This document shows, in pieces, positions 2,968 to 40,962 of a stretch of 64,000 nt of DNA (positions within the stretch are counted from its first letter, which is position 1; each line of letters begins with the position of its first letter). The DNA lies in assembly GCA_965204705.1 (NCBI GenBank), contig CBDBFE010000001.1, forward strand, positions 35,827 to 99,826, written 5' to 3'. This stretch comes from Caldilineaceae bacterium (GTDB lineage: Bacteria; Chloroflexota; Anaerolineae; Caldilineales; Caldilineaceae). The translations under genes were made by a program, and so were the position numbers. The notes beneath the pieces were generated by a model. The model worked only from the letters and a program-made list of their open reading frames with translations, was not told where the DNA came from and ran no database searches.

Positions 2968-3219
2968 TTAGGTCTTGTTGACAATTGGAGCAGGCCTCTT
3001 AAGAGCTGACAAATGCAAGCCCGCAGCTACCTCGCGCGACAGAAAAAGTGATTTCCCTAACCGTCCGCGGACCGGAAAGATCTTTTTCGCGTCCCTTCGC
3101 GCCTCTTCGCGGATCAAGAGCCGTTCTCCGCGCCCCTCCGTGTCCTCCGCGGACAAAAACGGTGTTCTCCGTGCCCTCCGTGGATCAAAAGCGGTTAGAA
3201 GTTCTCCGCGCCCCTCCGT
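2968..3219 (+). mobile_element. TIR-element family C, copy C1 (left end, core and short repeat payload), interrupted by MITE-A at 3220
   Basis: Left end TTAGGTCTTGTTGACAATTGG, then core CTTAAGAGCTGACAAATGCAAGCCCGCAGCTACC, then TTCGCG/CTCCGCGG-GA(T/C)CAAAA modules. The payload sequence stops abruptly where MITE-A begins. Confidence 0.6.
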
Positions 3220-18948: not shown

Positions 18949-20130
18949 ATGGGTCAGAAGAAGATTGCACTCGCGCTGGCCCTGCTGGTTACGGCCCTCC
19001 TATTGATGCTGCGCCCGCCCGCCATCGAGGCGCGTGAGATGCTGCATTCGTGCGAGGTAACGGATGAGGCACAGGCGACGGGGGTCGCTATTGAAATCAA
19101 AGACGGCGAACCGAGCCATGATTTTTGGTGCGGCTGGCATGTGCGATACACGGCCACGGTCACGCATACGCCCACGGTCACGCATACGCCCACGTCACCT
19201 TCAACGTCGACTTCTACCGCGACGTCAACGTCAACGTCAACCGCTACACAGACGCTGACATCAACGGCTACGCGCACGCGGACGCCAAGGCCGAGACCAA
19301 CGCGCACGCGCACGCCGGTGCCGGCGTCAACGTCCACGCCGACGGCAACGCCCACGTCGACATCAACGGCCACGGTCACGCCGACCTACACGCCCGCGCC
19401 GGCATCAACAGCCACGCCGACGCCAACCCCGACCTCGATACCGGTCGGACCACTAGGTCCCGAACCGACAGCCACCCCGACTGCGACGCCTACGCCAACG
19501 GCCGCCCCGACTGCGGCGCCCCAGGGCGATCTGGCTGCGCCGGCGCTCACCGCCCGGGCCACCGTGAATACGGTCGCTATGCAATGGGAAGTCGAGCTGC
19601 AGTGGACAGAGTCACCCGCCGCAGTCCGCTACGATCTGTGGGTATGGTGGGATGAGGAAACCGGCTGGCAGCGTATCGACGGCGGCCACCTGGCCGGCGT
19701 CTCCTACACGCACGCCGGCGTTGTCTCCGGCCGGACCTACTACTACACGGTCCGTGCCGTGGGCGCAAACGGCGAAACCGGCCCGTTTTCAGCGTACGCC
19801 CGTGTGACCGTCTCGGCGCTGACAGCGCCAACGCTGCGGGCGGAAACGGGATCCGGTTACGTCACCCTCACATGGGCTGCAGTGCCCAACGCAGCCCGCT
19901 ACGAGCTGTGGGTATGGTGGGATGAGGAGACCGGCTGGCAGCGCCTTGACGACGGCAATCTGGCCGGCGCCGCATACACGCACACGGACGTTGCCGCCGG
20001 CAGGACCTACTACTACGCCATCCGCGCCGTGGGCGCAAACGGCGAAACCGGCCCGTGGTCGCAGTGGGCGCAAGCGGCCGTGCCTGCGTCCGCAACGCGC
20101 AGCGGAGAGGCGGCCCCGGTCGCGCTGTAA
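18949..20130 (+). CDS. Secreted Pro/Thr-linker protein with two FN3-like modules (family member P1)
   Basis: ORF track 393 aa. Signal-like N-terminus, EAREMLHSC…HDFWCGWH motif, long T/P/S/A linker, then two VELQW…[15 protein letters not shown]…GRTYYY.(V/I)[11 protein letters not shown] modules. Confidence 0.75.
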   Translation: MGQKKIALALALLVTALLLMLRPPAIEAREMLHSCEVTDEAQATGVAIEIKDGEPSHDFWCGWHVRYTATVTHTPTVTHTPTSPSTSTSTATSTSTSTATQTLTSTATRTRTPRPRPTRTRTPVPASTSTPTATPTSTSTATVTPTYTPAPASTATPTPTPTSIPVGPLGPEPTATPTATPTPTAAPTAAPQGDLAAPALTARATVNTVAMQWEVELQWTESPAAVRYDLWVWWDEETGWQRIDGGHLAGVSYTHAGVVSGRTYYYTVRAVGANGETGPFSAYARVTVSALTAPTLRAETGSGYVTLTWAAVPNAARYELWVWWDEETGWQRLDDGNLAGAAYTHTDVAAGRTYYYAIRAVGANGETGPWSQWAQAAVPASATRSGEAAPVAL

Positions 20131-20320
20131 CGCGAGTCAGCGCGCCCCGGTATCTACGCAAAACATTCGTTGCCGTGTCGTGCCGGGTTGATTCGAAATC
20201 GATGCGGGTGGGCACATGCCAGCCCTCTGCCCGCACGGAAAAATCCGCTTCCGCGCGGCAATCCCCTGCCTGCGTCCCGCTTGGGATCTGCGTGAGTGCC
20301 TGAATTCGGAGATGTAAGAC

Positions 20321-21931
20321 ATGGTTAAGAGACGACTTGCAATCGCTGCGACCGTTATGGTTGCGGTCCTTCTTATGGTACTGCCGGGCGCTACAGTGGT
20401 TGAGGCACGCGAGATGTTGCATGGTTGTTTTTGGATACTGGAACCAGATATTTTTTATTATGATGGTCACCCGGAGCATGATGAACAATGCGGCATGCAC
20501 ACACCTACGCCTATGCCCACGGTCACGCCTACGCCCACAGCCACAACGACACCACCGACGCAAACTCCCACAGTCACGCCTACGCCAACAGCCACAGCGA
20601 CACGCAGACCAACGCGCAGGCCTAGACCGACTCGGACACGGACGCCAACTCCCACTGCGACGCCTACCGTCACGGAAACAGTGACGCCAACTCCCACTGT
20701 GACGCCTACGCCAACGGCCACCCCAACGCCGACGACCTCCGCGATGTTTGGCGCGACGCCGACAGCAACCCCGGCTGCGGGGGGCGCCCAGGGCGATCTG
20801 GCTGCCCCAACGCTGACGGCTCGGGCCAATGTGAACGCGGTCGATATGCAGTGGACAGTCGAGCTGCAATGGACCGCGGCGCCCGCTGCAGTCCGCTACG
20901 ATCTGTGGGTGTGGTGGGATGAAGAGACCGGCTGGCAGCGGCTCGACGACGGCAACCTGGCCGGCGTCTCCTACACGCACACCGACGTTGTCGCCGGCAG
21001 GACCTACTACTATACCATCCGCGCCGTGGGCGCAAACGGCGAAACCGGCCCGTATTCGACGCACGCGCCTGTGACCGTGCCGGCGCCAACGCCAACCCCG
21101 ACCTCGATACCGGTCGGGCCACCAGGTCCCGAACCGACAGCCACCCCGGCTGTGACGCCAACGCCGACAGCCACCCCGACTGCGACGACAACGCCTACGC
21201 CTACGCTAACCCCGCCCCCTATACCGGTCGGGCCACCAGGCCCCAAACCGCCAGCCACCCCGACTGCGATGGAAACCCCGACTGCGACGACAACGCCAAC
21301 AGCCACCCCGGCTACGGCGCCCCAGGGCGACCTGGCCGCGCCGGCGCTGACCGCCCGGACCACCCTGAATGCGGTCGCTATGCAGTGGACAGTCGAGCTG
21401 CAATGGACCGCGACGCCCGGCGCAGCCCGCTACGAGCTGTGGGTATGGTGGGATGAGGAGACCGGCTGGCAGCGCCTCGACGGCGGCAACCTGACCGGCG
21501 CCTCCTACACGCACACCGGCGTTGTCTCCGGCAGGACCTACTACTACGCCATCCGCGCCGTGGGCGCAGACGGCGAAGCCGGCCCGTATTCAGCGCAAGC
21601 CTATGTGACCGTCTCGGCGCTGTCAGCGCCAACGCTGCGGGCGGCAGCGGGCGCCGGCTACGTCACCCTCACATGGGATGCAGTGCCCAACGCAGCGCGC
21701 TACGAGCTGTGGGTATGGCGGGGCGCGGAAACCGGCTGGCAGCGTATCGACGACGGCAACCTGGCCGGCGTCTCCTACACGCACACCGATGTTGCCGCCG
21801 GCCTGACCTACTACTACGTCATCCGCGCCGTGGGCGCCAACGGCGAAACCGGCCCGTGGTCGCAGTGGGTGGAGGCGGCCGTGCCTGCGTCCGCAACGCG
21901 CCGCGATGAGGCGGCCCCGGTCGCGCTGTAA
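20321..21931 (+). CDS. Secreted Pro/Thr-linker protein with three FN3-like modules (family member P2)
   Basis: ORF track 536 aa. EAREMLHGC…HDEQCGMH motif, TPTPT linkers, three FN3-like modules. About 110 nt of upstream DNA and about 70 nt of downstream DNA are also duplicated from P1. Confidence 0.75.
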
Positions 21932-22107
21932 CGCCATGCGCCCCCCCCCCCCGGAATCTGCGCAAAACATTCGTTGCCGCGTCATGCCGGGGCAGCGCTC
22001 ACGCCAGCGCTGATAAAATTCCGCTGGCCCGCTGCGGGACAGGCGGGGAAGCCGTTCAGAACCTGCAGCATCTGTCTGAATACACCCTGTTTTTCCCGTT
22101 TCGTGAT

Positions 22108-22285
22108 CTAGGTCCCGTTGCCAATTGGCGACAGCCACTTAAGAGCTGACAGATGCAAGCCCTCAGCTACCTTGCGCGACAGACCCTGACCGTCCGCGGA
22201 CCGGAAAGATCTTCTTCGCGCGCCTTCGCGCCTCTTCGCGGATCAAAAAAGATGTTCTCGGTGACCCTCCGTGGATAAGAAGCAG
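22108..22285 (+). mobile_element. TIR-element family C, copy C2 (left end + core, short payload; right end not recognisable)
   Basis: CTAGGTCCCGTTGCCAATTGG…CTTAAGAGCTGACAGATGCAAGCCCTCAGCTACC…TTCGCGG modules. Confidence 0.55.
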
Positions 22286-22447
22286 ACTGATTCCGGCCCA
22301 TATTCATGCGACTCACTTTCTGCTTTGGGTCAAGCCGCCGCCTTGTCAAACCGATTGTGCAGAAACAAACATCACCTGCCGGTAATCATGCTGACAAGTG
22401 ATGCGCCCAAGCCTCGTACTGCCAATTCTGAAGAGGGGTTATCGATT

Positions 22448-23632
22448 ATGCACTTCAAAAACGCAACGCGATACCTTGTCGTTGTATGTGCGTTAATCGC
22501 AACCGCTTGGGCTATTTCGAGTTGTGATGGCCCGGAACCAGAACCAACCTCCAGTCTGTCTGGTCGTGTAGGTCAGGCGCAACCAACATTCACCGCCACG
22601 TCAGAATACGTAGTCACGCCAACTGTCCCATCCACACCGACTCCGGAAAGTCAAACAACATTTACAGTCAATCGTGCTGTAGTGAATGTGCGGCAGGGTC
22701 CGGGAACGAACTTCGGGGTCGTTGACCAGGTGAAGGAAGGTCAGAAGTTTGACGCCAACGGCACAAACCGTAATGGAGACTGGTTGCGATTCTGTTGTGT
22801 CGGTGGTCGAGACGGATGGATATACAAACCACTGGTAATCATTGAAGACTCAGAATTACCGGTTGTTGTTGTGGCTATTCCTGCCGCCTTGCCCTCGCCC
22901 ACATCACCCCCTGCTCCCAACCCAACGCGGCCGACCCATACGGACTCCGATCCTTTGGCTGGTATTTTGATTGTTCCAGAAAACCGCTGCTCGCCATACG
23001 ATCCGGACGATTACCCCTACCCACAATCTGTAGAACCCCAAATCATTGCCCAGATGGGTGGGATTGTTTACGGACCGTACTCAGGTCGATATTTCCGCGA
23101 TCGTGGCGAGACCGACATCGAACATATTGTAGCGAGAAGCGAAGCACATGACAGCGGAATGTGTGGCAGAGATGCTCAGGAGCGGAGGAACTTTGCTCGC
23201 GACCTGCTCAACCTTACACTCGCAGCCCCATCTTTGAATCGCCGTCAAAAATCGGCTAAGGACGTGGCTGAATGGTTGCCGCAATTGAATGAATGCTGGT
23301 TTGTCAATCGGGTGGTTGAAGTTAAGAGGAAGTACAATCTCTCAATGGACCCTGGCGAGGCGGATGCTGCCAGAAGGGTATTGGCAAACTGCTCATCCTT
23401 TGAAATGATCATCTATGCCCGAACAGAATCCGCCCCACCACCAACCGCAACACCTGCCCCATCTGTGGACTCAGGACAAACAAATTGGTTAGCGTCATGC
23501 GATTCCAATAACAATAATCGCATAACGTGCGCCGAAGCTGAGGCTTGCGGGATAAGTCATCCAGTTCCGAGTTCACATCCTGCCTACCAATACATGAACG
23601 ACCGCGACAATGATGGACAGGTCTGCGAATAA
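22448..23632 (+). CDS. Secreted lipoprotein nuclease: SH3b-like + HNH/DUF1524-like nuclease + Excalibur Ca-binding domain
   Basis: Track ORF 22271..23632. Likely start ATG 22448 (MHFKNATRYLVVVCALIATAWAISSC, lipobox). VNVRQGPGTNFGVVDQVKEGQKF…GDWL (SH3b-like). TDIEHIVARSEAHDSG…NLTLAAPSLNRRQKSAKD..EW (H-N-type nuclease core). C-terminal DRDNDGQVCE (Excalibur-type DxDxDGxxCE). Confidence 0.65.
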   Translation: MHFKNATRYLVVVCALIATAWAISSCDGPEPEPTSSLSGRVGQAQPTFTATSEYVVTPTVPSTPTPESQTTFTVNRAVVNVRQGPGTNFGVVDQVKEGQKFDANGTNRNGDWLRFCCVGGRDGWIYKPLVIIEDSELPVVVVAIPAALPSPTSPPAPNPTRPTHTDSDPLAGILIVPENRCSPYDPDDYPYPQSVEPQIIAQMGGIVYGPYSGRYFRDRGETDIEHIVARSEAHDSGMCGRDAQERRNFARDLLNLTLAAPSLNRRQKSAKDVAEWLPQLNECWFVNRVVEVKRKYNLSMDPGEADAARRVLANCSSFEMIIYARTESAPPPTATPAPSVDSGQTNWLASCDSNNNNRITCAEAEACGISHPVPSSHPAYQYMNDRDNDGQVCE

Positions 23633-23643
23633 TAATCCTGTCA

Positions 23644-23865
23644 CTAGGTCCCGTTGCCAATTGGCGAAAGCCTCTTAAGAGCTGACAGATGCAAGCCCTC
23701 AGCTACCTTGCGCGCCAGACCCTGACCGTCCGCGGACCGGAAAGATCTTTTTCGCGCCCCTTCGCGCCTCTTCGCGGATCAAAAGGTGTTCTCCGCGCCC
23801 CTCCGCGTCCTCCGTGACCCTCCGTGGACAAAAAGCAGTTAGACCTGCTTCGTGCTCCTTCGACG
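23644..23865 (+). mobile_element. TIR-element family C, copy C3
   Basis: CTAGGTCCCGTTGCCAATTGG…CTTAAGAGCTGACAGATGCAAGCCCTCAGCTACC…, near-identical to C2. Degenerate right end TTCGACGAGAAACC. Confidence 0.55.
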
Positions 23866-23960
23866 AGAAACCAAAGCAGAAAGAACAGCACAGCGATCGC
23901 ACACACTATGTACTGACCTGGAGTAAATCTGGTTTTGGGCCCAGGCTTTTTGTCCATCTG

Positions 23961-24221
23961 TCAATCCAAGACCCAAAACATCAGCGACAGCCCTAGGGCG
24001 ACTCCAGCGATTCCAGATGTCGCCACCATGGTGACGAAACCCCAAACGCCCTGTTTCCGTTTCCATGTTTCAACTCCGAGATAGAGGCATAGGGGTCCGC
24101 CTGCCAGTATCAGGACCGCTACAAAGGTGCCTTGCAGGGCAAGAACTGCGTTGGACATACTGTAAAGCGCAGCACCCCAGTAGAATCCCACAAAAAACAC
24201 GATGGACGGCAACGCTTTCAT
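23961..24221 (-). CDS. Small membrane protein
   Basis: ORF track 86 aa, with three hydrophobic helices. In a tight minus-strand series with 24349..24663. Confidence 0.45.
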   Translation of the reverse strand: MKALPSIVFFVGFYWGAALYSMSNAVLALQGTFVAVLILAGGPLCLYLGVETWKRKQGVWGFVTMVATSGIAGVALGLSLMFWVLD

Positions 24222-24348
24222 GGTGTTCCTCTTGTACTTTTGGTTCGTATGGGGAGAGTTAAAGGGCGTCGAGGGTGGGACACAATCCTCGTCTTTTCAA
24301 CGATCCTCATCTGTATCAGGAGGATGTTCTGGATCAAAAAACCAAAAG

Positions 24349-24663
24349 TCAATCAACCAAATGCTGCTCGACCGAGGATATGTTGGCACACCCGACCACC
24401 GAACACCCTCTCGGAATAGTCCAAAAAAGAGCCATTGCGGAATAAGAGGCGTGTAAACCCCCCAAAACCATACGACCGTCCAGTTGATCAAAATACGGCG
24501 CAACCTGCTGCGCCAGAGGAATTCGCGCGAAAAAATGAGTAGAGAAGGCGACCAGGGCAAAGAGGAGGGCGCTCCAGGCCGCGCCTGTGCGCTTTTGCCA
24601 GACGATAGGGATGGCAATGTGTAGGCCGACAATCATAAAGAGCTTTGCAATGAGAGTGCTCAT
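24349..24663 (-). CDS. Small membrane protein
   Basis: ORF track 104 aa, with hydrophobic helices (LFMIVGLHIAIPIVW, WSALLFALVAFSTHFF). Confidence 0.45.
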   Translation of the reverse strand: MSTLIAKLFMIVGLHIAIPIVWQKRTGAAWSALLFALVAFSTHFFARIPLAQQVAPYFDQLDGRMVLGGLHASYSAMALFWTIPRGCSVVGCANISSVEQHLVD

Positions 24664-24749
24664 GGCGATTGGCGGTTACCCCTGTCCAAATGTATTACGA
24701 CCTGTTAAGAGCCGGTGGGAAAAGCATAGGTTCGTCCCTCGTTCACTGC

Positions 24750-25517
24750 TCACGGCTCGAGAGCGAAGGTCGCTTTCAGCATAATCGCTACCTCAACCTT
24801 CGACGGGGCGTTGGTCAGCGATCCCGCGCCGCCCAGAGTCGTGTAGACCGTGTAGCCGCCGGTGGTTCTCTGCCCTTTGAAGGCAATGCAGCCGCCTGCC
24901 GGCCGGACTGCGCTGGACGGTGAGACATCCTCCGAGACTGCGATGACGCGGCCAAGCGTCATTTCCAGCAGCTCTGCCATCTGCATCGCGCGCTGGCGCG
25001 CATCGTTGAGCGCGGCTTTCATCGCCTCCTTTTCCAGTGTTGCGCACGCCTCGACCAGGAAAACGATACTCGCCCCCTCGATGGTAGGACCGCGTCGCTC
25101 TACCATCTCATCCAGGAGCGTCTGCAGCAGCGTTCGCAGGTTGTCCAGTTCAGAGTAGGAAAAGGTTACCTCGCCGCCGTAATTTGACGGCCCGAAGGCA
25201 TAGCTGCGACTGAGAAAGTTGACCTCAATCACATCCCCGTCGACGCCCATATCGATGAGAAAATCCCGCACATGTTCCAGGTCGGCCGGATCGACAATCG
25301 ACATTTCCGGCCCTCTGGGACCGTAGTAGGGTTCGTCGCCGATATACAGAGTGACAACTACGCTGTCCGGAGCGGCCGCCGCTGTTCCATAGCCCAATAC
25401 GGTGACGGCGGTTGTGGGCCCGGGCGCGCCTTCCTGCGCCGGCCGCGCCGCGCGGCTCGTGGCCGGGATCAGAAGCAGTGTTGCGGCACACAGGAGGCCG
25501 AGCAGGATGTTTCTCAT
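24750..25517 (-). CDS. SIMPL/DUF541-family secreted protein
   Basis: ORF track 255 aa. Signal peptide MRNILLGLLCAATLLLIPATSRA. …EAMKAALNDARQRAMQMAELLEMTLGRVIAVSE… is the helix pattern I associate with SIMPL domains. Confidence 0.65.
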   Translation of the reverse strand: MRNILLGLLCAATLLLIPATSRAARPAQEGAPGPTTAVTVLGYGTAAAAPDSVVVTLYIGDEPYYGPRGPEMSIVDPADLEHVRDFLIDMGVDGDVIEVNFLSRSYAFGPSNYGGEVTFSYSELDNLRTLLQTLLDEMVERRGPTIEGASIVFLVEACATLEKEAMKAALNDARQRAMQMAELLEMTLGRVIAVSEDVSPSSAVRPAGGCIAFKGQRTTGGYTVYTTLGGAGSLTNAPSKVEVAIMLKATFALEP

Positions 25518-25546
25518 CAGAATCTCCTTTTCTCAATTGTAACTGT

Positions 25547-26282
25547 CAGGGATCGTTGACATTTGCCGAAGACCATTCAAAATGTGACAAACACAAGCGC
25601 TCAGTGACCCCGCAGGACGGAAAAGGCGCCCCTTCGCGGATCAAAGAAAGCGATAAAGCCGTTCTCCGCGTCCCTCCGCGGACAAAAAAGGTGTTCTCCG
25701 TGCCCTCCGCGGATCAAAAGCAGTTAGATATTCTCCGCGCCCCTCCGTGTCCTCCGTGGACAAAAAGGTGTTGAAGTTCTCCGCGCCCTCCGTGGATCAA
25801 GAGCAGTTAAGATGTTCTTCGCGCTCCTTCGCGTCCCTTCGCGGATCAAAGAAAGCAGTAAAGCCGTTCTCCGCGTCCCTCCGCGGATCAAAAGCAGTTA
25901 GATGTTCTCCGCGCCCCTCCGTGTCCTCCGTGGACAAAAAGGTGTTGAAGTTCTCCGCGCCCTCCGTGGATCAAGAGCAGTTAAGATGTTCTTCGCGCTC
26001 CTTCGCGTCCCTTCGCGGATCAAAGAAAGCAGTAAAGCCGTTCTCCGCGTCCCTCCGCGGATCAAAAGCAGTTAGATGTTCTCCGCGCCCCTCCGTGTCC
26101 TCCGTGGACAAAAAGGTGTTGAAGTTCTCCGCGCCCTCCGTGTCCTCCGTGGACAAAAAGGTGTTGAAGTTCTCCGCGCCCTCCGTGGATAAAAAGTAGT
26201 TAGATCTGCTTCGTGCCCCTTTGTGGATGGAACAGGTTTTGCCGTGGATGTCCCGGTTCAAGCAAACGTCAACGAGTCCTGG
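25547..26282 (+). mobile_element. TIR-element family C, copy C4, carrying a 174-bp higher-order tandem repeat (25620-26210)
   Basis: Left end CAGGGATCGTTGACATTT and right end AAACGTCAACGAGTCCTGG. The interior repeats with exact 174-bp offset (for example GAGCAGTTAAGATG at 25801 and 25975). It fills the whole gap between the SIMPL start (25517) and the channel stop (26286). Confidence 0.7.
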
Positions 26283-26285
26283 TCC

Positions 26286-27119
26286 CTACTCCCTACCCCC
26301 TGCCCCCTGCCTCAAACGTTCCTCCAGGCGGTCGAGCGTTTGCCTGGCTGAGCGCAGCTCCCGCAGGCTTTCCTCTGTCGACGCCGGCGTTTCCAACGGA
26401 CGCGGGCGCCAGCGCTCCTGTATCACCTCCGCCAGGTTTCTTACCACCACGGCTACGAACAGATTGGCTACGATATAGGCGCTGATGATCACAAAACTGA
26501 TGAAATAGACCCACGCCATCGGCTCTGCGCCGCTGACGGCGATCATGATGTTGCCCCAGTCATCCATCGTCATGATCTGAAACAGCGACAGAATCGAAAC
26601 GCCCAGGTTCCCCCAGTGTGTCGGGTCATGCTCGCCGAAGTTGTGGTACCCGACAATGCCGTACGCATAGAGGATGATGCCCAGCAGGACCACGACGTGC
26701 CCCATGCTTGGTATCGAGCGAATCAGCGCCACCAGGATCACGCGCAGCTCCCGGACCGTCGAAAGGCCCCGCAGGAGACGCAGCAAGCGCACCAGCAAGA
26801 CCAGCATCACATTGATCGTGAGGGCCGGCCACACCAATAGGGTGAGCAGCATGAAGCTGATTGCCAGGAAATCGAAGAGGTTCCATCCAACCCGGAAATA
26901 CCGGTCGACCCTTGGCCACAGCGCAAACATCCTGAGAAGCACATCCAGAAGGAGCGCTACCAGCGTCAGGAACCAGAACAGCGCCGCCATCCACAGCACG
27001 AATGGGACCAGGCGGTCGAAAGTCGTCACCCCCAGCAAAAGGGCGCTTCCCGCAATGAGAACCACCAGGATGTATTCAAACTTCCGCGAGTGGGCGATAC
27101 GGTGCGCTATCCCTCGCAT
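26286..27119 (-). CDS. Voltage-gated ion channel, single-domain BacNav/NaChBac-like
   Basis: ORF track 277 aa, six hydrophobic segments. S4 LVRLLRLLRGLSTVR (Arg every third residue). Pore LSLFQIMTMDDWGNIM. C-terminal coiled coil. Confidence 0.8.
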   Translation of the reverse strand: MRGIAHRIAHSRKFEYILVVLIAGSALLLGVTTFDRLVPFVLWMAALFWFLTLVALLLDVLLRMFALWPRVDRYFRVGWNLFDFLAISFMLLTLLVWPALTINVMLVLLVRLLRLLRGLSTVRELRVILVALIRSIPSMGHVVVLLGIILYAYGIVGYHNFGEHDPTHWGNLGVSILSLFQIMTMDDWGNIMIAVSGAEPMAWVYFISFVIISAYIVANLFVAVVVRNLAEVIQERWRPRPLETPASTEESLRELRSARQTLDRLEERLRQGAGGRE

Positions 27120-27733
27120 CTTCTCGCTCCTTTACGTCCTCTCATCTGATAGTTCCCGCGCTCTTGAGTTTTCCGTATTCGCCCGGTCCCATCTCCTCCC
27201 TGTGCAGACCGGTTCTGCGCCCATACCTGTTACGGAGTCATACAGGTCGCCGGTAATAAGGGCGCTCCGGTCATAGTCCTCGTCGGGTTCGTCAATCCAC
27301 GCCAAATAAGCCCTCTCCTTTCAGCCTCCCAAGCTGCCCGCCGCGTCCGTCCGGCAGGCCCGGCTGCCAACCTCACCTGCTCAGTCTGCGCCTGTTTATC
27401 TCTCTTCAAGCTTTTCGCCGGTTTTCTTTTCAGACCTCATCTATCCAGCAGGCCTGCAAACAGCGTCACGCTGCCCACTATGCAGATAGCCGGCAGCAGC
27501 CGTTCCATCGGATGCCTGAAACCGCCTGCGTTAAGCGCCCGATGCGCCATCTCCGGTGATCTGCGCGCCATCCCGTGTCTCCCTTTTCCTGTAAGAAAGC
27601 CCTAATGCCGGCTCGCGTTCGAAAGGAGCCCCCCGGTGAGATAACGTTGCCCTGCGCCGGCCGCGCCGGAACGCCGGATAGTCAAGCCGCGCTGGTTGCA
27701 CGGCCATGCTGACAAGAACCCCGCATATAACAC

Positions 27734-28153
27734 TTATTGCCCGCCCTTTTCCTGTTCGGCCAGCCAGGTCCACGCAATGCACCTTTCCAGGTCGCTTAAC
27801 TCACCCGCGATCCGGTACAGTTCGCTGCCCGCGCTGGTTGCCAGCTGCGCCTGCAGACCGACCGTGCGGACGCGCAGGACCGGCAGATCGTCAGGCCGCG
27901 CCGGCTGCACGGTCATGCTGACAAGAACCCTTTCGTCCGCGGCCGCATGGCCTATGACGACCGCAAGGCCGCCGTCCCTCAGTTCGCACCGTATCCAGTA
28001 GCCGCCCAGGACAGGAGTGCGCCGGCCGCTTTCGATAGCCTGCCTTAAAATCGGTGTCAGCTGCTCGATGACCCAATCGTCCACCTGGGCGCGCCCGCAA
28101 ATCAGCTCCCGGCGGCTTTCCACTGTGATATGCCGCAGCTCTCGTCTACTCAC
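27734..28153 (-). CDS. Hypothetical protein
   Basis: ORF track 139 aa. Start overlaps the stop of 28150..28455 by 4 nt (operon-like). A 40-bp piece of the gene (around 27895-27930) is duplicated at 27680-27720. Confidence 0.45.
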   Translation of the reverse strand: MSRRELRHITVESRRELICGRAQVDDWVIEQLTPILRQAIESGRRTPVLGGYWIRCELRDGGLAVVIGHAAADERVLVSMTVQPARPDDLPVLRVRTVGLQAQLATSAGSELYRIAGELSDLERCIAWTWLAEQEKGGQ

Positions 28154-28455
28154 TGTGTACGCCTGTCTGGTCTGTCGCCATGGCAGTACAAGCCGGAAGC
28201 GACCTCCCGTCCGGCGGGGGTGAGCCTGTGTAAGCCGGGACTTTTGACGGAAGGATGGCGGACCCTTTCAAGGTGCCCGCTTTCGGCAAGCTGGGCTCTG
28301 TACTTGGAAAGCTGGAAGTGTAGTTTGTTCCAGTCTTCATCCCAGTTGATCAGGTTGGCAATGAAGTTGGTGATCGAGACATTGTCTGCCTCGCCGCCGA
28401 AGGTTTCGTAGGCGACGAGCAGCGTACTTCTCCAGGTCAGCATTCGTTCGGTCAT
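28150..28455 (-). CDS. Hypothetical protein, possible winged-helix
   Basis: ORF track 101 aa. …LAESGHLERVRHPSVKSPGLHRLTPAG… resembles a wHTH recognition helix plus wing. This is a weak call. Confidence 0.4.
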   Translation of the reverse strand: MTERMLTWRSTLLVAYETFGGEADNVSITNFIANLINWDEDWNKLHFQLSKYRAQLAESGHLERVRHPSVKSPGLHRLTPAGREVASGLYCHGDRPDRRTQ

Positions 28456-28539
28456 TTCCTGCCCCCGGTCCTAATGGCGGGTCCCAATCTCTGGACCATA
28501 AGACGGCGAAGATAAGGCGCATCCGGACGGATTCGGCCT

Positions 28540-28635
28540 CCCATGGTTGCAGAAGTCGAAGTAGGCGGTCAGCCCGGTCTGCGCCTGCATCATTGCAGCC
28601 CCTGATGGCTATGCTGGACAGCGCGCAGTCCGGTC
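28540..28635 (-). pseudogene. IS remnant: transposase (rve-type) C-terminal tail fragment, copy 1 of 3
   Basis: The minus strand reads MQAQTGLTAYFDFCNHGRP, resembling the …YNH.RPH… tail of DDE/rve transposases. About 50 nt are near-identical to 30549.. and 31604.., followed by an imperfect palindrome. Confidence 0.4.
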
Positions 28636-28988
28636 CCCAGCGGTTCGATAGTTTCGTTGCCGCCTTTGTATCGTTGCTGCCTTCGATGCGGGCAGCGAAT
28701 ACCACCACACCATCAGTTCGTAGCGCGCCGCGCCCGGCCCGGCGTCCCCTGCTGCGCCGAAACCGGGTTCGTGTACAACAAGATGCCGGCAATCGCCGCC
28801 AAAATACCCGGACCGGCAACAAACGGCCATCTGTTCCGTCTTCGCAGCATCTGCCATCCCCTTTGGGAACGCCGGGTGTAGGGCTTCATGATCCAATAAA
28901 AGGACCTGTATCGAATAGCGCCGCGGCGAGAAAGTGGGAATCGGGCGTGAATGGAAACCGGTTCATATTCTGAGAACGGTTCGAATGA

Positions 28989-29657
28989 TCAAGAAGAATG
29001 GGGAAGTTCGTCCATCTGAACTGTAACCTTGCCAATCTCCATGGAGGTCGGGCAGGTTACGCCTGCGGTCACGATGTACTGCATTGCTTCTCCGTAGTTC
29101 CAGTCGATGGACTGTATTTCGCTCATTGGAACCTGCACCAGCCAGCCCGACTGAGGCATCGGGGTAGAGGGCATGTAGACCGCCCCGTAGCTTGTTCCCT
29201 GTTCGTCTGCGATGACGGCCATCAGAAAACCCACGCACCACACCCCGCGTCTTGGGTACTCCACCCGCACCACGGTATTGAAACCGGTATCGCTAGTCGT
29301 TGCGTCGGAGTCGGGCATCAGCTTCTTTGTGGTGGAGTAGACGGAGCCCAATCCGGGCGTCGATATGATCCCCTGCTCAATGAGGTGACCGAGAGTTCGG
29401 AACACGACAGTCGAGCCTAGCGCGTCGAACGCCAGCAGCACAATCACGATGATGGCGATGCTAAGACCAGGCACCTCCCGGCCGGCGACCGAGAAGATAA
29501 AGGGTTGAAAGAAGCCGTCCAGCGTGTCGTAGGCGAACTTGACCACCCAGAGAGTGACCAGCAGTGGTAGAAGCAGAATGGCCCCGCGTCCAAGACTGCT
29601 GGCGACTCTGGGTCCTAGCCTGCGATAGAGCGCTGCCGGCTCTGTTCTAATCGTCAT
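28989..29657 (-). CDS. DUF502-family membrane protein
   Basis: ORF track 222 aa. N-terminal LLPLLVTLWVVKFAYDTLDGFFQP and two TM helices, followed by a soluble domain. Family assigned from recall. Confidence 0.6.
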   Translation of the reverse strand: MTIRTEPAALYRRLGPRVASSLGRGAILLLPLLVTLWVVKFAYDTLDGFFQPFIFSVAGREVPGLSIAIIVIVLLAFDALGSTVVFRTLGHLIEQGIISTPGLGSVYSTTKKLMPDSDATTSDTGFNTVVRVEYPRRGVWCVGFLMAVIADEQGTSYGAVYMPSTPMPQSGWLVQVPMSEIQSIDWNYGEAMQYIVTAGVTCPTSMEIGKVTVQMDELPHSS

Positions 29658-29747
29658 GGTTCACCTCCATCGATTCCGGGACAACTGTTGGGTTGGCTGT
29701 GTTTCGATACCCTCCACTACGCCTCCTCCTTACCCCTCCAATCTGAC

Positions 29748-30438
29748 CAGGTCTTGTTGACAATGGGCGCAGGCCGCTTAAGAGTTGACAAGTGCAAGCC
29801 CTCAGCTACCTCACGCGACAAAAAAGGTGTCCTCCCCTTACTCGGCAGTTCACTGAAAACTAAAAACCGGCTACTAAAAACTGCCCCTCCGCGCCCTCCG
29901 CGGACAAAAAACTGTACTCCCCTTACTCGGCAGTTCACTGAAAACTAAAAACCGGCTACTAAAAACTGCCCCTCCGCGCCCTCCGCGGACAAAAAACTGT
30001 ACTCCCCTTACTCGGCAGTTCACTGAAAACTAAAAACCGGCTACTAAAAACTGCCCCTCCGCGTCCTCCGCGGACAAAAAAGGTGTACTCCCCTTACTCG
30101 GAGTTCACTGAAAACTAAAAGCCGGCTACTAAAAACTGCCCCTCCGCGCCCTCCGCGGACAAAAAAGTGTACTCCCCTTACTCGGCAGTTCACTGAAAAC
30201 TAGAAACCGGCTACTAAAAACTGCCCCTCCGCGCCCTCCGCGGACAAAAAACTGTACTCCCCTTACCCGGCAGTTCACTGAAAACTAGAAACCGGCAACT
30301 AAAAACTGCCCCTCCGCGCCCTCCGCGGACAAAAAAGTGTACTCCCCTTACTCGGCAGTTCACTGAAAACTAAAAACCGGCTACTAAAAACTGCCCCTCC
30401 GCGTCTATCCCGGTTCAAGCAAAAGTCAACGAGCCCTG
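29748..30438 (+). mobile_element. TIR-element family C, copy C5, carrying 7 tandem 85-bp units
   Basis: Left end CAGGTCTTGTTGACAATGGG plus core CTTAAGAGTTGACAAGTGCAAGCCCTCAGCTACC. Right end AAAAGTCAACGAGCCCTG. CACTGAAAAC recurs at 29851, 29936, 30021, 30106, 30191, 30276 and 30361 (period 85). Confidence 0.75.
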
Positions 30439-30548
30439 AACCATATAAACGCCTTCCCATTGCTGTCATTGCGCGCCGCGCTTCTTGCCCGCATGATCCC
30501 GGCTTTGAACTCCCTGGCCCCCAAAACAGCGCCCATCACCGGCTTCAA

Positions 30549-30590
30549 ATGGTTGCGGAAGTCGAAGCCGGCGGTCAGCCCGGTCTGCTG
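30549..30590 (-). pseudogene. IS remnant (transposase tail fragment), copy 2 of 3
   Basis: GGTTGCGGAAGTCGAAGCCGGCGGTCAGCCCGGTCTGC is identical in its core to 31610-31650. Confidence 0.4.
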
Positions 30591-30655
30591 AAGTGGGCCC
30601 GGGAACCGGACCGCAGGCCAAGGTCTATCAATCGACCCGGTTCACGTCGAAAACG

Positions 30656-31006
30656 CTAACGCCATCGCATGCCGCGTATTTCCGCCTCCAGCTCACGAAT
30701 CCTTGCGGTATTCTCAAAGTGCCTTCCTCTGCCCATGTAGTTAGCGACAACATTGGCCAGGATCGCGATCATCAACGTCGCCAGGATATATGTGGCCAGC
30801 CGCAAACGCTGCGCCCCCTCGGCATCGAGACGCGCCCGCAGACCTTCATCTTCAATGGCGCCCTCCTCGACAAGAACCCCATAGAACTCGATGATCTCGG
30901 CCGCTCCCGTTCTGTGCGCCGATTCCGCCAGCTGGAAAAGCAGGAACAGCATCGCCACAATCGTAATCAGGTTGAACACAACCGGCTGAAAAAGTTTGTC
31001 CTTCAC
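30656..31006 (-). CDS. Small two-TM membrane protein (tandem paralog A)
   Basis: ORF track 116 aa. Shares P(V)(V/I)FN(L/I)(I/V)TI.A.L…L.ATALIAILANV(V/I)AN…IR(E/Q)LEAE with 31008..31367. Confidence 0.55.
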   Translation of the reverse strand: MKDKLFQPVVFNLITIVAMLFLLFQLAESAHRTGAAEIIEFYGVLVEEGAIEDEGLRARLDAEGAQRLRLATYILATLMIAILANVVANYMGRGRHFENTARIRELEAEIRGMRWR

Positions 31007-31007
31007 C

Positions 31008-31367
31008 TTACGACCTCCTTGATCGCAATCCGTGCAGTTCCGCTTCCAACTGGCGAATCCTGTCTTGGTTCACGCGCTGTCTCCTGCGGCCAAGATGATT
31101 GGCGATGACGTTGGCAAGAATGGCGATGAGCGCCGTGGCGCTCATGCTGATGTTGAACCTCTGTCGCCACGCCTGATCGGTCGCCAGACGCAAACTCGAG
31201 GTCTCGTCCACGGCGTCGCTTTCCGGAGCATGTTCCAGAATAAGCTGAATAGCCTCAGTCGTTGCGGACATCATGCGCGCCGGCGCCGTCAGCGTCTGGG
31301 CCAGGCAAAGCAGCAAGGCCGCAATTGTGACAATGTTGAAAATTACAGGTCGGTTAAGCTTGTCCAT
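31008..31367 (-). CDS. Small two-TM membrane protein (tandem paralog B)
   Basis: ORF track 119 aa. One nt separates its stop from the start of paralog A. Confidence 0.55.
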   Translation of the reverse strand: MDKLNRPVIFNIVTIAALLLCLAQTLTAPARMMSATTEAIQLILEHAPESDAVDETSSLRLATDQAWRQRFNISMSATALIAILANVIANHLGRRRQRVNQDRIRQLEAELHGLRSRRS

Positions 31368-31603
31368 CGCTTCATGCCCTCCTTGCGGTTATGCGCATGG
31401 CAGGCGAGACGGTTATCGTTGTCCGCCTCGCCCTGCCTCTGCAGTTCCTGGTCGTTCTCCCTTTCGCCGGCCTCGCGGGAGCGATATCTATGCTCGCCTG
31501 TGGCCTGAATACACGCCTGCGCGCACGCAGAACCGGCCAGGCCGTCATGCGAATTTTGCGCCGCGAAACGCGCAACCTCGCCGTCGCGACCTTGATATGG
31601 TCT

Positions 31604-31700
31604 CCCATGGTTGCGGAAGTCGAAGCCGGCGGTCAGCCCGGTCTGCGCCTGCATCTTTGCAGCCCCAGATGCCTGTGCCGGACAGCGCGCTGTCCGGCAC
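31604..31700 (-). pseudogene. IS remnant (transposase tail fragment + palindrome), copy 3 of 3
   Basis: The minus strand reads MQAQTGLTAGFDFRNHGRPYQ. It is adjacent to the perfect palindrome GTGCCGGACAGCGC|GCTGTCCGGCAC (31674-31700). Confidence 0.4.
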
Positions 31701-31998
31701 AGGTGAAACCGCCGCCCCGCACGGCCCGCCCGCCTCACCGGCGGTCTTTCCTCTCCAGTTTTAAGTCCCTGAAGATGCGCCATGCCAGGTACCCGTACAG
31801 GCTGCCGACCACAACGAACGTCAGCGGTTTGGACACCGGCCACGTGTAGGCGGCCGCAAACAGGCCGATCAGGAAAATTGCGACATCAACCGCCTTTGTC
31901 ATCGGGTGGCCCTCCAGTCAGGAAAAATCCCCAGTACGGCTCTTCTTGTTGAATCTGAGGCCCGCGGCCGCGGACGCTCTCCCACAACGGCATCAGGC

Positions 31999-32412
31999 TC
32001 ATCCCCCCGTCTTCCTTCGCAACTGGCGGCGCACGTGAACGGCCGCCAGGCCTGCCGCCGCAATGGGCAAGATGCATATCGGTACATTTGTCAGGCTCTC
32101 GCACATGGATTCATTCCGGTAATAGGACGCCCCCCGGCAAAGTACGAACTGCAGCTCCAGGAATCGCCATAGCAAATTGAGTGTGGCAGCGGCAAGAAGG
32201 GCAAGCGTGTAGGCCGTGCCTTTCCAATAGGCAAACGCCGAAATAACTGTCACGATCACAGAGACGGCGATGAACTCGTGCGCGACGAAGTCCAGCAGGA
32301 TACTGTCCGGGTACCGCTCGGCAACGCGGGGAAGGACCAGGACGAGCACGCGCAACAATATAAAAGCGGCAGCTGCTAAGACAGCCGGCGGACCAGAAAT
32401 AACGCTCCTCAT
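31999..32412 (-). CDS. Integral membrane protein, unknown function
   Basis: ORF track 137 aa, four hydrophobic helices. Confidence 0.5.
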   Translation of the reverse strand: MRSVISGPPAVLAAAAFILLRVLVLVLPRVAERYPDSILLDFVAHEFIAVSVIVTVISAFAYWKGTAYTLALLAAATLNLLWRFLELQFVLCRGASYYRNESMCESLTNVPICILPIAAAGLAAVHVRRQLRRKTGG

Positions 32413-32432
32413 CTTTTCTCTTCTGGTAGAAC

Positions 32433-33230
32433 TTCTCCGCGCCCCGCCGCGTCCGCCGCGGACAAAAAAGGTGTACTCCCCTTACTCGGCAGTTCACTGA
32501 AAACTAAAAACCGGCTACTAAAAACTGCCCCTCCGCGCCCTCCGCGGACAAAAAAGGTGTACTCCCCTTACTCGGCAGTTCACTGAAAACTAAAAACCGG
32601 CTACTAAAAACTGCCCCTCCGCGCCCTCCGCGGACAAAAAAGGTGTACGCCCCTTACTCGGCAGTTCACTGCAAACTAAAAACCGGCTACTAAAAACTGC
32701 CGTTCCGCGTCCTCCGCGGACAAGAAAAGTGTACTCCCCTTACTCGGCAGTTCACTGAAAACTAAAAACCGGCTACTAAAAACTGCCGTTCCGCGTCCGC
32801 CGCGGACAAAAAAGGTGTCCTCCCCTTACTCGGCAGTTCACTGAAAACTAAAAACCGGCAACTAAAAACTGCCGTTCCGCGTCCTCCGCGGACAAGAAAA
32901 GTGTACGCCCCTTACTCGGCAGTTCACTGCAAACTAAAAACCGGCTACTAAAAACTGCCGTTCCGCGTCCTCCGCGGACAAGAAAAGTGTACGCCCCTTA
33001 CTCGGCAGTTCACTGAAAACTAGAAACCGGCTACTAAAAACTGCCGTTCCGCGTCCTCCGCGGACAAGAAAAGTGTACGCCCCTTACTCGGCAGTTCACT
33101 GAAAACTAAAAACCGGCTACTAAAAACTGCCGTTCCGCGTCCTCCGCGGACAAAAAAGGTGTACGCCCCTTACTCGGCAGTTCACTGAAAACTAAAAACC
33201 GGCTACTAAAAACTGCCGTTCCGCGCCCCG
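32433..33230 (+). repeat. Tandem array of 9 units of 86 bp (same unit family as 29817-30406), without recognisable TIRs
   Basis: CACTG(A/C)AAAC recurs at 32495, 32581, 32667, 32753, 32839, 32925, 33011, 33097 and 33183 (period 86). It fills the gap between the stop of 33234..34310 and the start of 31999..32412. Confidence 0.8.
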
Positions 33231-33233
33231 CAG

Positions 33234-34310
33234 CTACCAGACCCGGTGTTCCACCTGATTGCTCCGGTCGAGCGTGAAAATATAGGGCTTGTTCGCAGCG
33301 ACAGGTGTATCCGCATAGTAGGTGCTGACCCGAACCACCTCCTCGTCGCGCAGATAATCGATGAGCACCGGCTTGCCGCTCATCGGATTCACGCCGCTGT
33401 ACAGCTCGATTACGCGCGCAAGCGGTGTTGCGGCCGGTTCCGGCCTGTCGAGCGCCTCGCGGAACCTCCTTTTGACCGATTCGATCACCGACGAAGGATA
33501 TCTGCCGGCCAGGTCGCTGACTGAAGACAGATACGGCCCTGTTTGCGTAGCGCCGTCCGGCCCGATGAAATAGTACTGCAGCCCCTCCCCTGCCTGGCAG
33601 AGCTGCGCCGGCGTCGCAAAATGCTTCACGATGCACGCCATGTCCGGCGTCGGCGCAGCCGCTGGCCTTGCCGTCCGCGTCGCCGTTGGGACCGGTGTCG
33701 GCGTTGCTGTCGGCGCCGGTGTGTAAGTCGGCGTCGCCGTTATTGTCGGCGCCGGCGTGTAGGTCGCCGTGGCCGTTGATGCCGGCGCCGGTGTGTAGGT
33801 CGGCGCTGCCGTCGATGCCGGTGCCGGCGTATAGGTCGCCGTCGCCGTTGATGTCGGCGTCCGCGTGTAGGTCGGCGCCGGTGTGCGCGTGCGCGTCGGT
33901 CTCGGCCTTGGCGTGCGCGTCACCGTTGCTGCCGGCGCCGGCGTGTAGGTCGCCGTGGCCGTTGATGCCGGCGCCGGTGTGTAAGTCGCCGTCGGCGTGG
34001 CTGTGTCTGCTGGCGTCGACGTAGCGGTTGCGGTCGACGTCGCGGTCCCTGTTGCGGTCGACGTAGCGGTTGCGGTCGGCGTAGCGGTCCCTGTTGAGAT
34101 CGACGTCGCGGTGGCGGTCGGCGTGTGCGTTCCGCAGATATCATCATGGTCCGGATCCCCGTCGGGGATCTGCTCGATCGCCTCTGGGTTAGAAGTGTCC
34201 AGGCACGAATGCAGCATCTCACGCGCCTCGACCGCTGGCGCGCGCTGCAGTATCAAAAAAAGCGCCGGAACTACCAGGGCCAGCGCGATCGCAATCATCT
34301 TCCTGTCCAT
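33234..34310 (-). CDS. Secreted Pro/Thr/Ala-linker protein with a distinct C-terminal domain (family member P3)
   Basis: ORF track 358 aa. Signal-like N-terminus, EAREMLHSC…HDDICGTH motif, (A)TYTPAPASTA repeats, and a ~140-aa non-repetitive C-terminal domain. Confidence 0.65.
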   Translation of the reverse strand: MDRKMIAIALALVVPALFLILQRAPAVEAREMLHSCLDTSNPEAIEQIPDGDPDHDDICGTHTPTATATSISTGTATPTATATSTATGTATSTATATSTPADTATPTATYTPAPASTATATYTPAPAATVTRTPRPRPTRTRTPAPTYTRTPTSTATATYTPAPASTAAPTYTPAPASTATATYTPAPTITATPTYTPAPTATPTPVPTATRTARPAAAPTPDMACIVKHFATPAQLCQAGEGLQYYFIGPDGATQTGPYLSSVSDLAGRYPSSVIESVKRRFREALDRPEPAATPLARVIELYSGVNPMSGKPVLIDYLRDEEVVRVSTYYADTPVAANKPYIFTLDRSNQVEHRVW

Positions 34311-34370: not shown

Positions 34371-34440
34371 CTAGCAGACTTTTCGTGCCAAAGGGGTGAC
34401 AGAAGAGTGTGTTTTGTACCAATATGGTGTCAGTTTTTGA
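34371..34440 (-). promoter_or_regulatory. Conserved non-coding block (second copy of 18261..18332)
   Basis: The reverse complement reads TCAAAAACTGACACCATATTGGTACAAAA…TTCTGTCAC…GGCACGAAAAGTCTGCTAGA. It lies 60-130 nt upstream of the P3 start, in the divergent intergenic region shared with the hybrid kinase. Confidence 0.5.
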
Positions 34441-34565
34441 ACGGCGGTTTTTAGTCCTCGGCCCTGTTCGGTTATAGTGAACTGCCGGGTACGCGAAAAT
34501 CCCCCTTTGCACGCGGGAGAACCGCGTTTCCTGCCTTAGGGTCGGGAGAGGGCGCGGCGCTTTGA

Positions 34566-36968
<2,403 letters not shown>

Positions 36969-38269: not shown

Positions 38270-38340
38270 CGGGCAGTTCACTGAAAACTAAAAACCGGCT
38301 ACTAAAAACTGCCTTTCCGCGTCCCTCCGCGGACAGAAAG
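38270..38340 (+). repeat. Solo copy of the 85/86-bp unit
   Basis: CGGGCAGTTCACTGAAAACTAAAAACCGGCTACTAAAAACTGCCTTTCCGCGTCCCTCCGCGGACAGAAAG. Confidence 0.75.
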
Positions 38341-38371
38341 GGCCCTTCTGCGCTGTTCTCATCCGACTGCT

Positions 38372-38827
38372 TCAGGGGGCGACAGGCGGTACCAGAGACG
38401 CATCCTCATTGCCCTGCAGTCGCCGTATCTCCTCGGCCAGTTCAACAAAACGGCCATAGCTGCCGAAACGATACGTTGTTCGTTCGTCTATCGAGACTCG
38501 TCTCCACCTCTCTTTGCCGGTCCCCTTGCGACAAGCTACAGGACCACTCGCCGGCGCCGCTTCCACGATGCCCAGCCTGATAAAATCGAAGACCAGCTCG
38601 GCAACGAGCTCAGGCGTCATGCTTCCGTGACGGTAGCCGCCCGACCTCCTGGCAATCTGGGTATGCGTTGCCGAAAACTCTCTGCCGCCGCACGCGTCTG
38701 CCATCTCCGCCATACACGTAAGCAGCATCCGGTATTGCGGGTACATCAAATCGAGCAGTCCGCTCCCTCTCAACGCCCCGGTTACGTTCCCAAAACTGTG
38801 TTCACCCATCCGTGCCCTCATCATCAT
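38372..38827 (-). CDS. Hypothetical protein
   Basis: ORF track 151 aa, non-repetitive. Possible HTH around FSATHTQIARRSGG. No family recognised. Confidence 0.4.
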   Translation of the reverse strand: MMMRARMGEHSFGNVTGALRGSGLLDLMYPQYRMLLTCMAEMADACGGREFSATHTQIARRSGGYRHGSMTPELVAELVFDFIRLGIVEAAPASGPVACRKGTGKERWRRVSIDERTTYRFGSYGRFVELAEEIRRLQGNEDASLVPPVAP

Positions 38828-40680: not shown

Positions 40681-40962
40681 CTAGGGTTCGTTGACGTTTG
40701 ACGGTATAGCGATCCGCGGTAGCAAAGTGCGGCTTATCCCTGAAGAACTGCGCAACTGCGAAATGAAAACTTGATAGGCCCCAGGTGTTCTCCGCGGCCC
40801 TCCCTGGCCCTTCGTGGACAGAGAAAGGTGTTCTTCGTGGCCCTTAGTGGCCCTTCGTGGACAAAAAGGTGTTCTCCGTGGTCCTCTGTGGCCCTCCGTG
40901 GACAAAAAAGGTGTTTTGCTCTGGCTTGTCTCACAAAAAAGGCAAACGTCAACGAGTCCTAG
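40681..40962 (+). mobile_element. TIR-element family C, copy C6 (282 bp)
   Basis: Left end CTAGGGTTCGTTGACGTTT and right end AAACGTCAACGAGTCCTAG (inverted repeat of about 17-19 bp). Interior has CCTTCGTGGACA(A/G)A(A/G)AAGGTGTTCT modules. It sits inside a duplicated sequence whose other copy (39481-39500) is uninterrupted. Confidence 0.7.

Follow-up and report, generated by a model that had tools for sequence, protein, structure and literature searches.

Two tandem arrays of a composite intergenic repeat in a Caldilineaceae genome

Short intergenic repeats that multiply in tandem have been described in several bacterial systems, and we compare these here with two arrays of an 85/86-bp non-coding unit in a 64,000-nt stretch of DNA (the window) from the genome assembly of a Caldilineaceae bacterium (GCA_965204705.1; Chloroflexota). 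The assembly was searched whole (6.18 Mb in three contigs, C1, C2 and C3), and the window is C2:35827-99826. The units of both arrays combine two modules, A and B; array 1 lies inside a miniature inverted-repeat transposable element (MITE) bounded by terminal inverted repeats (TIRs), and array 2 fills the space between two genes. The principal features are as follows.

29809-30403, plus strand: array 1, with seven module-A copies and six full A+B units
32447-33225, plus strand: array 2, with nine module-A copies and no TIR
29748-30438, plus strand: MITE-like element of 691 bp (family C), with TIRs CAGG(G)YTCGTTGAC at both ends and array 1 as its interior
38272-38342, plus strand: solo A+B unit, ~30 nt before the stop codon of the minus-strand open reading frame (ORF) 38372-38827

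The BOX repeats of Streptococcus pneumoniae, boxA-(boxB)n-boxC (Croucher et al. 2011, PMC3049150), are like the element that holds array 1 in being composite intergenic repeats whose end modules carry TIRs and are similar to the ends of a resident insertion sequence (IS). They likewise carry an internal module as a tandem array of variable copy number, range in size from <100 to ~700 bp and cluster with other repeat families. The internal modules described here, however, also occur outside any TIR-bounded element, as in array 2, and they share no sequence similarity with BOX and belong to another phylum.

Enterobacterial bacterial interspersed mosaic elements (BIMEs), with their clusters of repetitive extragenic palindromes (REPs), and the GTAG/CGTC REP families (Di Nocera et al. 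2013, PMC3733652) resemble the present repeats in being mosaics of short intergenic motifs in tandem, in lying mostly downstream of genes and in being specific to a species or genus; a true GTAG-tagged REP-like family even coexists with the arrays in this genome. In contrast, modules A and B carry neither a GTAG nor a CGTC tag, the part of A that is conserved does not form a palindrome, and the units stand head-to-tail in one orientation instead of in alternating pairs. The transposase of such systems, Y1 or REP-associated tyrosine transposase (RAYT; PF01797), was absent from this genome (97.7% complete) and was present in only 1 of 36 genomes of the genus.

MITEs of the IS5 family offer a third comparison, since the TIRs around array 1 are of the same type as those of a resident ~830-bp IS with a DDE_Tnp_1 domain, and compact copies of 215-270 bp exist. 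The array 1 element departs from them in an interior that tandem amplification has enlarged, to 691 bp overall, array 2 has no TIR, and the replication-locked orientation described below is unusual for DDE elements. Bacterial minisatellites, or variable-number tandem repeats, likewise consist of head-to-tail units (here of 85/86 bp) with clustered variants, and the arrays are absent from the orthologous locus of a close relative; in contrast to a locus-specific minisatellite, however, this unit is built from dispersed modules that are conserved across a genus.

The modules and the origin of the arrays

Tandem repeats in the window were called with Tandem Repeats Finder (TRF), and the units were then listed one by one from a common anchor. 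TRF assigned array 1 a period of 85 with 7.0 copies, 95% matches and a score of 1079, and array 2 a period of 86 with 9.1 copies, 95% matches and a score of 1383. An earlier note on this DNA, made by reading the letters alone, had counted 7 and 9 copies plus a solo unit, and both TRF and the unit listing agree with that count. It had also given both arrays a strict period, which holds for array 2 (86 bp in 8/8 intervals) but not for array 1, where the intervals are 85, 85, 86, 84, 85 and 85 bp (range 84-86, mode 85). Similarly, the hairpin GGCAGTT-28 nt-AACTGCC that it placed in each unit is found in 15/16 units, the exception being unit 4 of array 1, whose 5' arm is one base short. Both ACTAAAAAC direct repeats and the CCGCG-CCCTC-CGCGG motif with its A-run are present in the units of both arrays as described, and so is the clustering of variant types within arrays. 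Units within the arrays are 93-100% identical to one another. The variants ACTAGAAAC and CGGCAACT occur in array 1 and array 2 alike, which suggests a common origin or exchange between the arrays. No long ORF was found across either array, and the genes beside both all lie on the minus strand, as the earlier note had it. A CRISPR array was considered and rejected: the 85/86-bp units are near-identical over their whole length and have no unique spacers, and the true CRISPR repeats of the genome are unrelated.

Each unit joins two modules, both of which are also found apart from each other in a wide range of array formats. In module A, which contains the hairpin named above, the core is 34 nt long and A-rich (CACTRAAAACTAAAAACYGRCTACYAAAAACTGC). 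Module B, CTCCGCGnCCTCCGCGGACAAAAA, has the consensus CTCCGYGnCCTCCGYGGAYMAAAA and is made of 10-bp CTCCGYGGCC sub-repeats; it reads as CTCCGYG direct repeats at ~10-bp spacing plus an A-run. The earlier note had proposed a genome-wide census of the unit. In this census, full-length composite units were almost confined to the two arrays, and the second half of the query matched dozens of other sites. Module A has ~53 copies in the genome, many of them in arrays of period 46, 54, 65 or 102 bp and clustered at C1:4.72-4.83 Mb; module B forms 96 clusters, with typical periods of 31, 41-43, 64, 74 and 84 bp. Repeat-array periods in this genome thus span 31-102 bp, and module-A arrays in relatives have periods of 62 and 93 bp and a start-to-start spacing of 171 bp. 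Given these varied unit lengths in relatives, the tandem amplification of A-containing units is recurrent, each event having its own unit boundaries. The genome also contains three true CRISPR arrays and several further families of intergenic repeats, one of which is the GTAG-tagged REP-like element (GTAGGGGCAGG..CCTGCCC).

We then consider how far the modules extend beyond this genome. Module A matched 23 of 24 sampled species of the genus and 0 of 16 genomes from other families of the class, the related genomes being non-independent samples. One relative, G008, has next to no copies of A or B. An exact scan for the core pattern, with one genome per species, returned at least 100 stretches, every one titled as a Caldilineaceae bacterium metagenome-assembled genome (MAG) and many bearing the names of sponge studies. 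Two scans of Joint Genome Institute metagenome contigs for the composite junctions gave 0 matches, the proteins flanking the arrays in the window were not on record elsewhere, and no strain-level copies of the locus were obtained. Modules A and B thus form a mosaic repeat system across one genus of sponge-associated Caldilineaceae, and the suggestion that the arrays might be plain neutral minisatellites with no conservation outside the genome does not fit this distribution.

To determine which part of module A is conserved, we aligned 173 distinct copies from this genome and from relatives' loci, the latter having been selected by the exact core pattern. A 34-nt stretch, CACTAAAAACTAAAAACYGACTACTAAAAACTGC, is at least 90% conserved in every column, and so is what the earlier note had taken for the loop of its hairpin. 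The 5' arm GCAGTT is conserved at only 70-77%, and the 3' arm is mostly unchanged when the 5' arm varies. A 6-bp stem is retained in 87/173 copies with only two compensatory cases, although covariation was under-sampled here because the search pattern for relatives' loci included the 3' arm. The hairpin is therefore not the conserved feature of the unit, and the A core is. It is more likely that this core is a putative sequence-specific recognition element, for a protein or for mobilisation machinery, than that it is a hairpin.

The frame of array 1 identifies its source. The left 88 bp of the 691-bp element have 86% identity to single-unit MITEs in a relative, G045, and the right end is ~88% alike. 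Compact counterparts of 215-300 bp in G045 and a second relative, G009, hold one to three B units, or B-B-A-B, and two further members of family C lie in the window:

25548-26280, plus strand: TIR-bounded element with a module-B array of 174-bp higher-order period as its interior
40681-40962, plus strand: compact MITE of ~270 bp with three module-B units

The same TIR frame therefore encloses a variable interior: one to three B units, B-B-A-B, the 174-bp higher-order B array, or seven A+B units. An IS5-family IS of ~830 bp at C1:1002590-1003420 has the TIRs of the family-C MITEs and two ORFs, the second a DDE_Tnp_1, and is likely their autonomous partner. Since its TIRs and ends match those of the compact MITEs and of this IS, array 1 is the expanded interior of an IS5-type MITE. 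The compact copies have CTAG/CTAA-like flanks; the ends of the array 1 copy are degenerate, and no clear target-site duplication was seen there. At one relative's locus (L105), a module-A copy is cut exactly at ...CTACTAGG by the IS/MITE TIR (AGTCGTTGACA), and this element appears to use the CTA-rich A core as a target.

Array 2 has a different setting. It occupies the entire gap from the start of the minus-strand gene 31999-32412 to the stop of the minus-strand gene 33234-34310, and no TIR is present beside it (32413-32446 and 33226-33233). Its last unit, together with the 3' end of the adjoining 358-aa gene, is homologous to four sites in the relative G018, at each of which one B...B-A unit adjoins the stop codon of a gene paralogous to it. 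Comparison of G018:C1:26000-45000 with window positions 18949-34310 showed that the PT-linker secreted-protein genes are tandemly multiplied in G018. Every tandem copy there keeps its B...B-A unit right after the stop codon, and gene and repeat were therefore duplicated together.

Relatives carry the B-A unit of the arrays as a single copy. The closest syntenic relative, G050, whose hybrid kinase is 82% identical and which shares the 137-aa gene, a 55-aa gene and DUF502, has no arrays in its orthologous intergenic regions, only ordinary spacers. Since G018 has single units and syntenic G050 has no arrays, both arrays are lineage-specific expansions of pre-existing single units. These comparisons, along with the near-identity of the units and the clustering of their variants, show that both arrays arose by recent local amplification of a B-A unit that belongs to a BIME/BOX-like mosaic system, and they bear out the local amplification proposed in the earlier note.

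We favour a reading, at a probability of roughly 0.6, in which both arrays are non-coding, minisatellite-like expansions of a composite unit that is constrained in orientation. Modules A and B would circulate in intergenic DNA, solo or in arrays of many periods. One B-A unit within an IS5-type MITE would have been amplified to seven copies, giving array 1, and a lone B-A unit immediately past a secreted-protein gene to nine, giving array 2. The units were likely multiplied by slippage during replication or by unequal exchange between sister strands, and array 1 and array 2 would also have exchanged some sequence. It is probable that neither array has an RNA or coding function of its own.

Repeat orientation and GC skew

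On C1 the GC skew is about -0.10 at 0.25-2.8 Mb and about +0.09 at 2.85-5.7 Mb. Intergenic DNA and the genes on each strand share the same skew, and gene strands are divided ~50/50 in each half of the contig. Against this background, the orientations of the repeat families were as follows.

Module-B motif: on C1, plus almost only in negative-skew bins and minus almost only in positive-skew bins; 39:0 on C2 and 0:10 on C3
GTAG-REP-like family (GTAGGGGCRSSYCTTGYG...): 83:0 in the negative-skew half and 7:105 in the positive-skew half
Module A: 120/130 clusters agree with the skew rule
Module A in relatives' 8-kb loci: 84/93 agree with the skew rule
IS5-type MITE, asymmetric left part: 27/27 of the genome's own copies agree with the skew rule, local skew reversals included

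Moreover, 0/96 module-B clusters had mixed orientations. The orientation of the repeat families thus follows the sign of the GC skew almost perfectly and independently of gene strand. Composition alone cannot explain this lock because the palindromic REP-like family is locked too. The constraint to one orientation points to insertion or survival being tied to the replication fork rather than to transcription. One rare exception to the rule, which the first reading of the window had missed, is an inverted module-A copy at 34431-34491.

The lock is much stricter than what is on record for comparable repeats. BOX, RUP and SPRITE lie on the leading strand in only ~61% of cases (PMC3049150), in contrast with the 27/27 MITE copies and ~92% of module-A clusters that follow the skew here. 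A bias of IS orientation relative to replication is known for several families, but it is far weaker and not clear for IS5 (PMC3971601).

Several other markers of replication polarity were compared with the skew. The cumulative skew on C1 has its minimum at 2.83 Mb and its maximum near 0. The dnaA gene lies at 5.479 Mb, ~0.43 Mb from the cumulative skew maximum and far from the 2.83 Mb minimum; ~0.25 Mb from that minimum, at 2.584 Mb, there is a weak DnaA-like AAA+ match. The G-rich strand carries rpoB and the L16 operon, and the two rRNA operons are on opposite strands. In a search for polar oligomers of the kind of FtsK-orienting polar sequences (KOPS) or Chi, G-rich octamers containing GCGGAGG were strongly skewed in coding DNA, as were many others. 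The heptamer CGCGGAC represents the opposite strand of module B, and the polar-oligomer analysis singled out no module motif.

C2, which carries the window, and C3 differ from C1 in gene density, with ~58-59% of bases in called genes vs 80% on C1, and the sign of their GC skew is uniform from end to end, negative on C2 and positive on C3. Both properties fit repeat-rich pieces of a chromosome better than bidirectionally replicating plasmids, and a search of a plasmid database gave no match. We also considered whether C2 could be a strain-variant copy of the repeat-rich region of C1, but rejected this explanation, the matches between them being those of ISs and paralogues only.

By themselves the arrays are ordinary, namely locally expanded mosaic intergenic repeats. 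Their context is of more interest: several unrelated repeat families, a transposase-type MITE among them, are locked in orientation in an uncultured genus of sponge symbionts without a single-strand transposase. If the polarity rule reflects a mechanism, it bears on how repeats spread at replication forks, and it would also supply a free marker of replication direction in Chloroflexota MAGs.

Alternative explanations for the core and the arrays

Several observations weigh against regarding the units as purely neutral or selfish DNA, and so against the reading that we favour. Genes were called with a rough codon-usage caller for which this genome served as training set. In 37/55 cases a convergent gene has its stop codon no more than 35 nt from the 3' end of the A core, and in 28/55 no more than 10 nt from it; the 35-nt measure on the 5' side of the core gave 1/47. 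The genes concerned are mutually unrelated (ABC permeases, a CBS-domain protein, dehydrogenases and others), and several recur across species. In four sets of orthologous stop-codon sites, a 32-nt core is 100% identical across species, although synonymous sites differ and the DNA past the core is partly unalignable. The invariance of the core would reflect either purifying selection or repeated precise insertion of a consensus element. Together with the stop-codon link, it hints at selection for a cis-function, or at some means of precise targeting, that neutral or selfish spread leaves unexplained. In addition, the search for an enzyme that could mobilise the units outside the MITE gave none, the genome having neither Y1/RAYT nor TnpB.

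The rival best served by these observations, which we regard as possible but doubtful, is that the A core and the arrays are a functional, strand-specific cis-element: the binding site of a genus-specific factor, or a signal for 3' ends or against head-on transcription, with the arrays as a stronger version of it. An invariant core at orthologous sites with diverged flanks, a tight and one-sided link to the stop codons of unrelated genes, and an orientation locked to the replication strand independently of gene strand all speak for such an element. Transcription termination supplies one example, in that C-rich, G-poor transcripts made only head-on to replication (against the G-rich strand) could load Rho; Rho is encoded in this genome, and the plus strand of the unit is C-rich and G-poor. 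However, to our knowledge, Rho utilization (rut) sites need no 34-nt invariant sequence, which counts against this variant. For the cis-element in general, the array periods of 46, 54, 62, 65, 85, 93, 102 and 171 have no common helical phasing, the orthologous locus in G050 works without arrays, and the module motifs did not emerge from the polar-oligomer analysis. It is possible that the arrays are putative protein-binding sites, as the earlier note had proposed, but neither a binding factor nor a protein gene consistently linked to the unit was found, and the neighbouring genes are diverse.

A broader version of this idea, which strikes us as unlikely, is that an as yet undescribed, RAYT-independent rule or mechanism forces every intergenic repeat family (A, B, the GTAG-REP-like family and even the DDE-type MITE) into one polarity per replichore. 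In this version the invariant 34-nt A core would be a strand-specific signal right after stop codons, serving for example as a polar barrier or a loading site where replication meets transcription or where mRNAs end, and the arrays would be an amplified form of that signal.

A lock of repeat orientation to the replication strand is usually explained by a Y1 single-strand transposase. IS200/IS605 elements are said to show such replication-strand orientation behaviour, following work by Ton-Hoang and colleagues. That orientation work (Ton-Hoang et al. 2010) is cited in PMC3971601. If the units were products of REP/RAYT- or IS200/IS605-type single-strand transposition, the strand bias would be explained directly, and both the strictness of the lock and the equally locked GTAG-tagged REP-like family resemble what such elements do. 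We nevertheless consider this origin improbable: apart from the near-absence of Y1 from the genus and the fact that no TnpB was found in this genome, modules A and B have neither the tags nor the conserved palindrome of REP families, and a TIR-bounded MITE of DDE type is locked as well.

The earlier note had also proposed that the arrays might encode structured RNA built on the 7-bp hairpin. Minimum free energy (MFE) folds of the unit bypass this stem, and half of the distinct copies do not have it. No Rfam family matched at gathering score over the window or at E<=1 over 29700-33300, and a search for tRNA and tmRNA found none. Promoter- and terminator-like sites per unit showed no excess over shuffled controls (terminator-like sites 6 vs 5.9 expected), and the minus-strand hairpin plus U6, as a candidate intrinsic terminator, is weak (-8.5 to -10.7 kcal/mol, z -0.2 to -1.5). 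That the arrays encode tandem structured small RNAs, with GGCAGTT/AACTGCC and CCGCG hairpins and processing to ~85 nt, is therefore very improbable, even though the plus-strand unit folds better than shuffles (z = -3.2 and -2.9), CCGYGG variants keep their pairing through G-U on the plus strand only and the stem has its two compensatory variants, since the linker behind the good fold is specific to this genome, the 5' arm varies uncompensated, no promoter accompanies the units, and the strand that would be read together with the genes on either side has no folding advantage over shuffles (z about -0.8 to -1.0).

Genes and other repeats around the arrays

The genes and the remaining module copies near the arrays are the following.

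28989-29657, minus strand: gene for a DUF502 membrane protein, adjoining array 1
30656-31367, minus strand: two tandem paralogous genes for small membrane proteins of 116 and 119 aa, between the arrays
31999-32412, minus strand: gene for a membrane protein of 137 aa, its start codon 34 nt from array 2; the G050 orthologue has no upstream array
33234-34310, minus strand: gene for a PT-linker secreted-protein paralogue of 358 aa; 16 nt separate its stop codon from the final module-A core in array 2
34431-34491, minus strand: diverged (~80%) and inverted module-A copy, in the spacer between divergent genes that precedes the hybrid kinase gene
3136-3195, plus strand: two module-B units, upstream of a leucine-rich repeat (LRR) gene

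The two arrays are direct repeats of ~600-780 bp that bracket a 2-kb gene cassette. Since these flanking repeats are more than 90% alike, the pair is a likely substrate for deletion or duplication of the enclosed cassette. The stretch between the arrays is itself duplicated: a 49-nt segment occurs three times (88-90% alike) at 28534-28582, 30540-30588 and 31598-31646, its copies alternating with the arrays and with the tandem paralogues for membrane proteins. The hybrid kinase (window 34566-36968), a single polypeptide of GAF-PAS-HK-REC-wHTH architecture, is one member of a large family of paralogues, of which 29/35 relatives have as many as 11 copies per genome (50-60% identity), and many of these copies carry a single in-frame stop.

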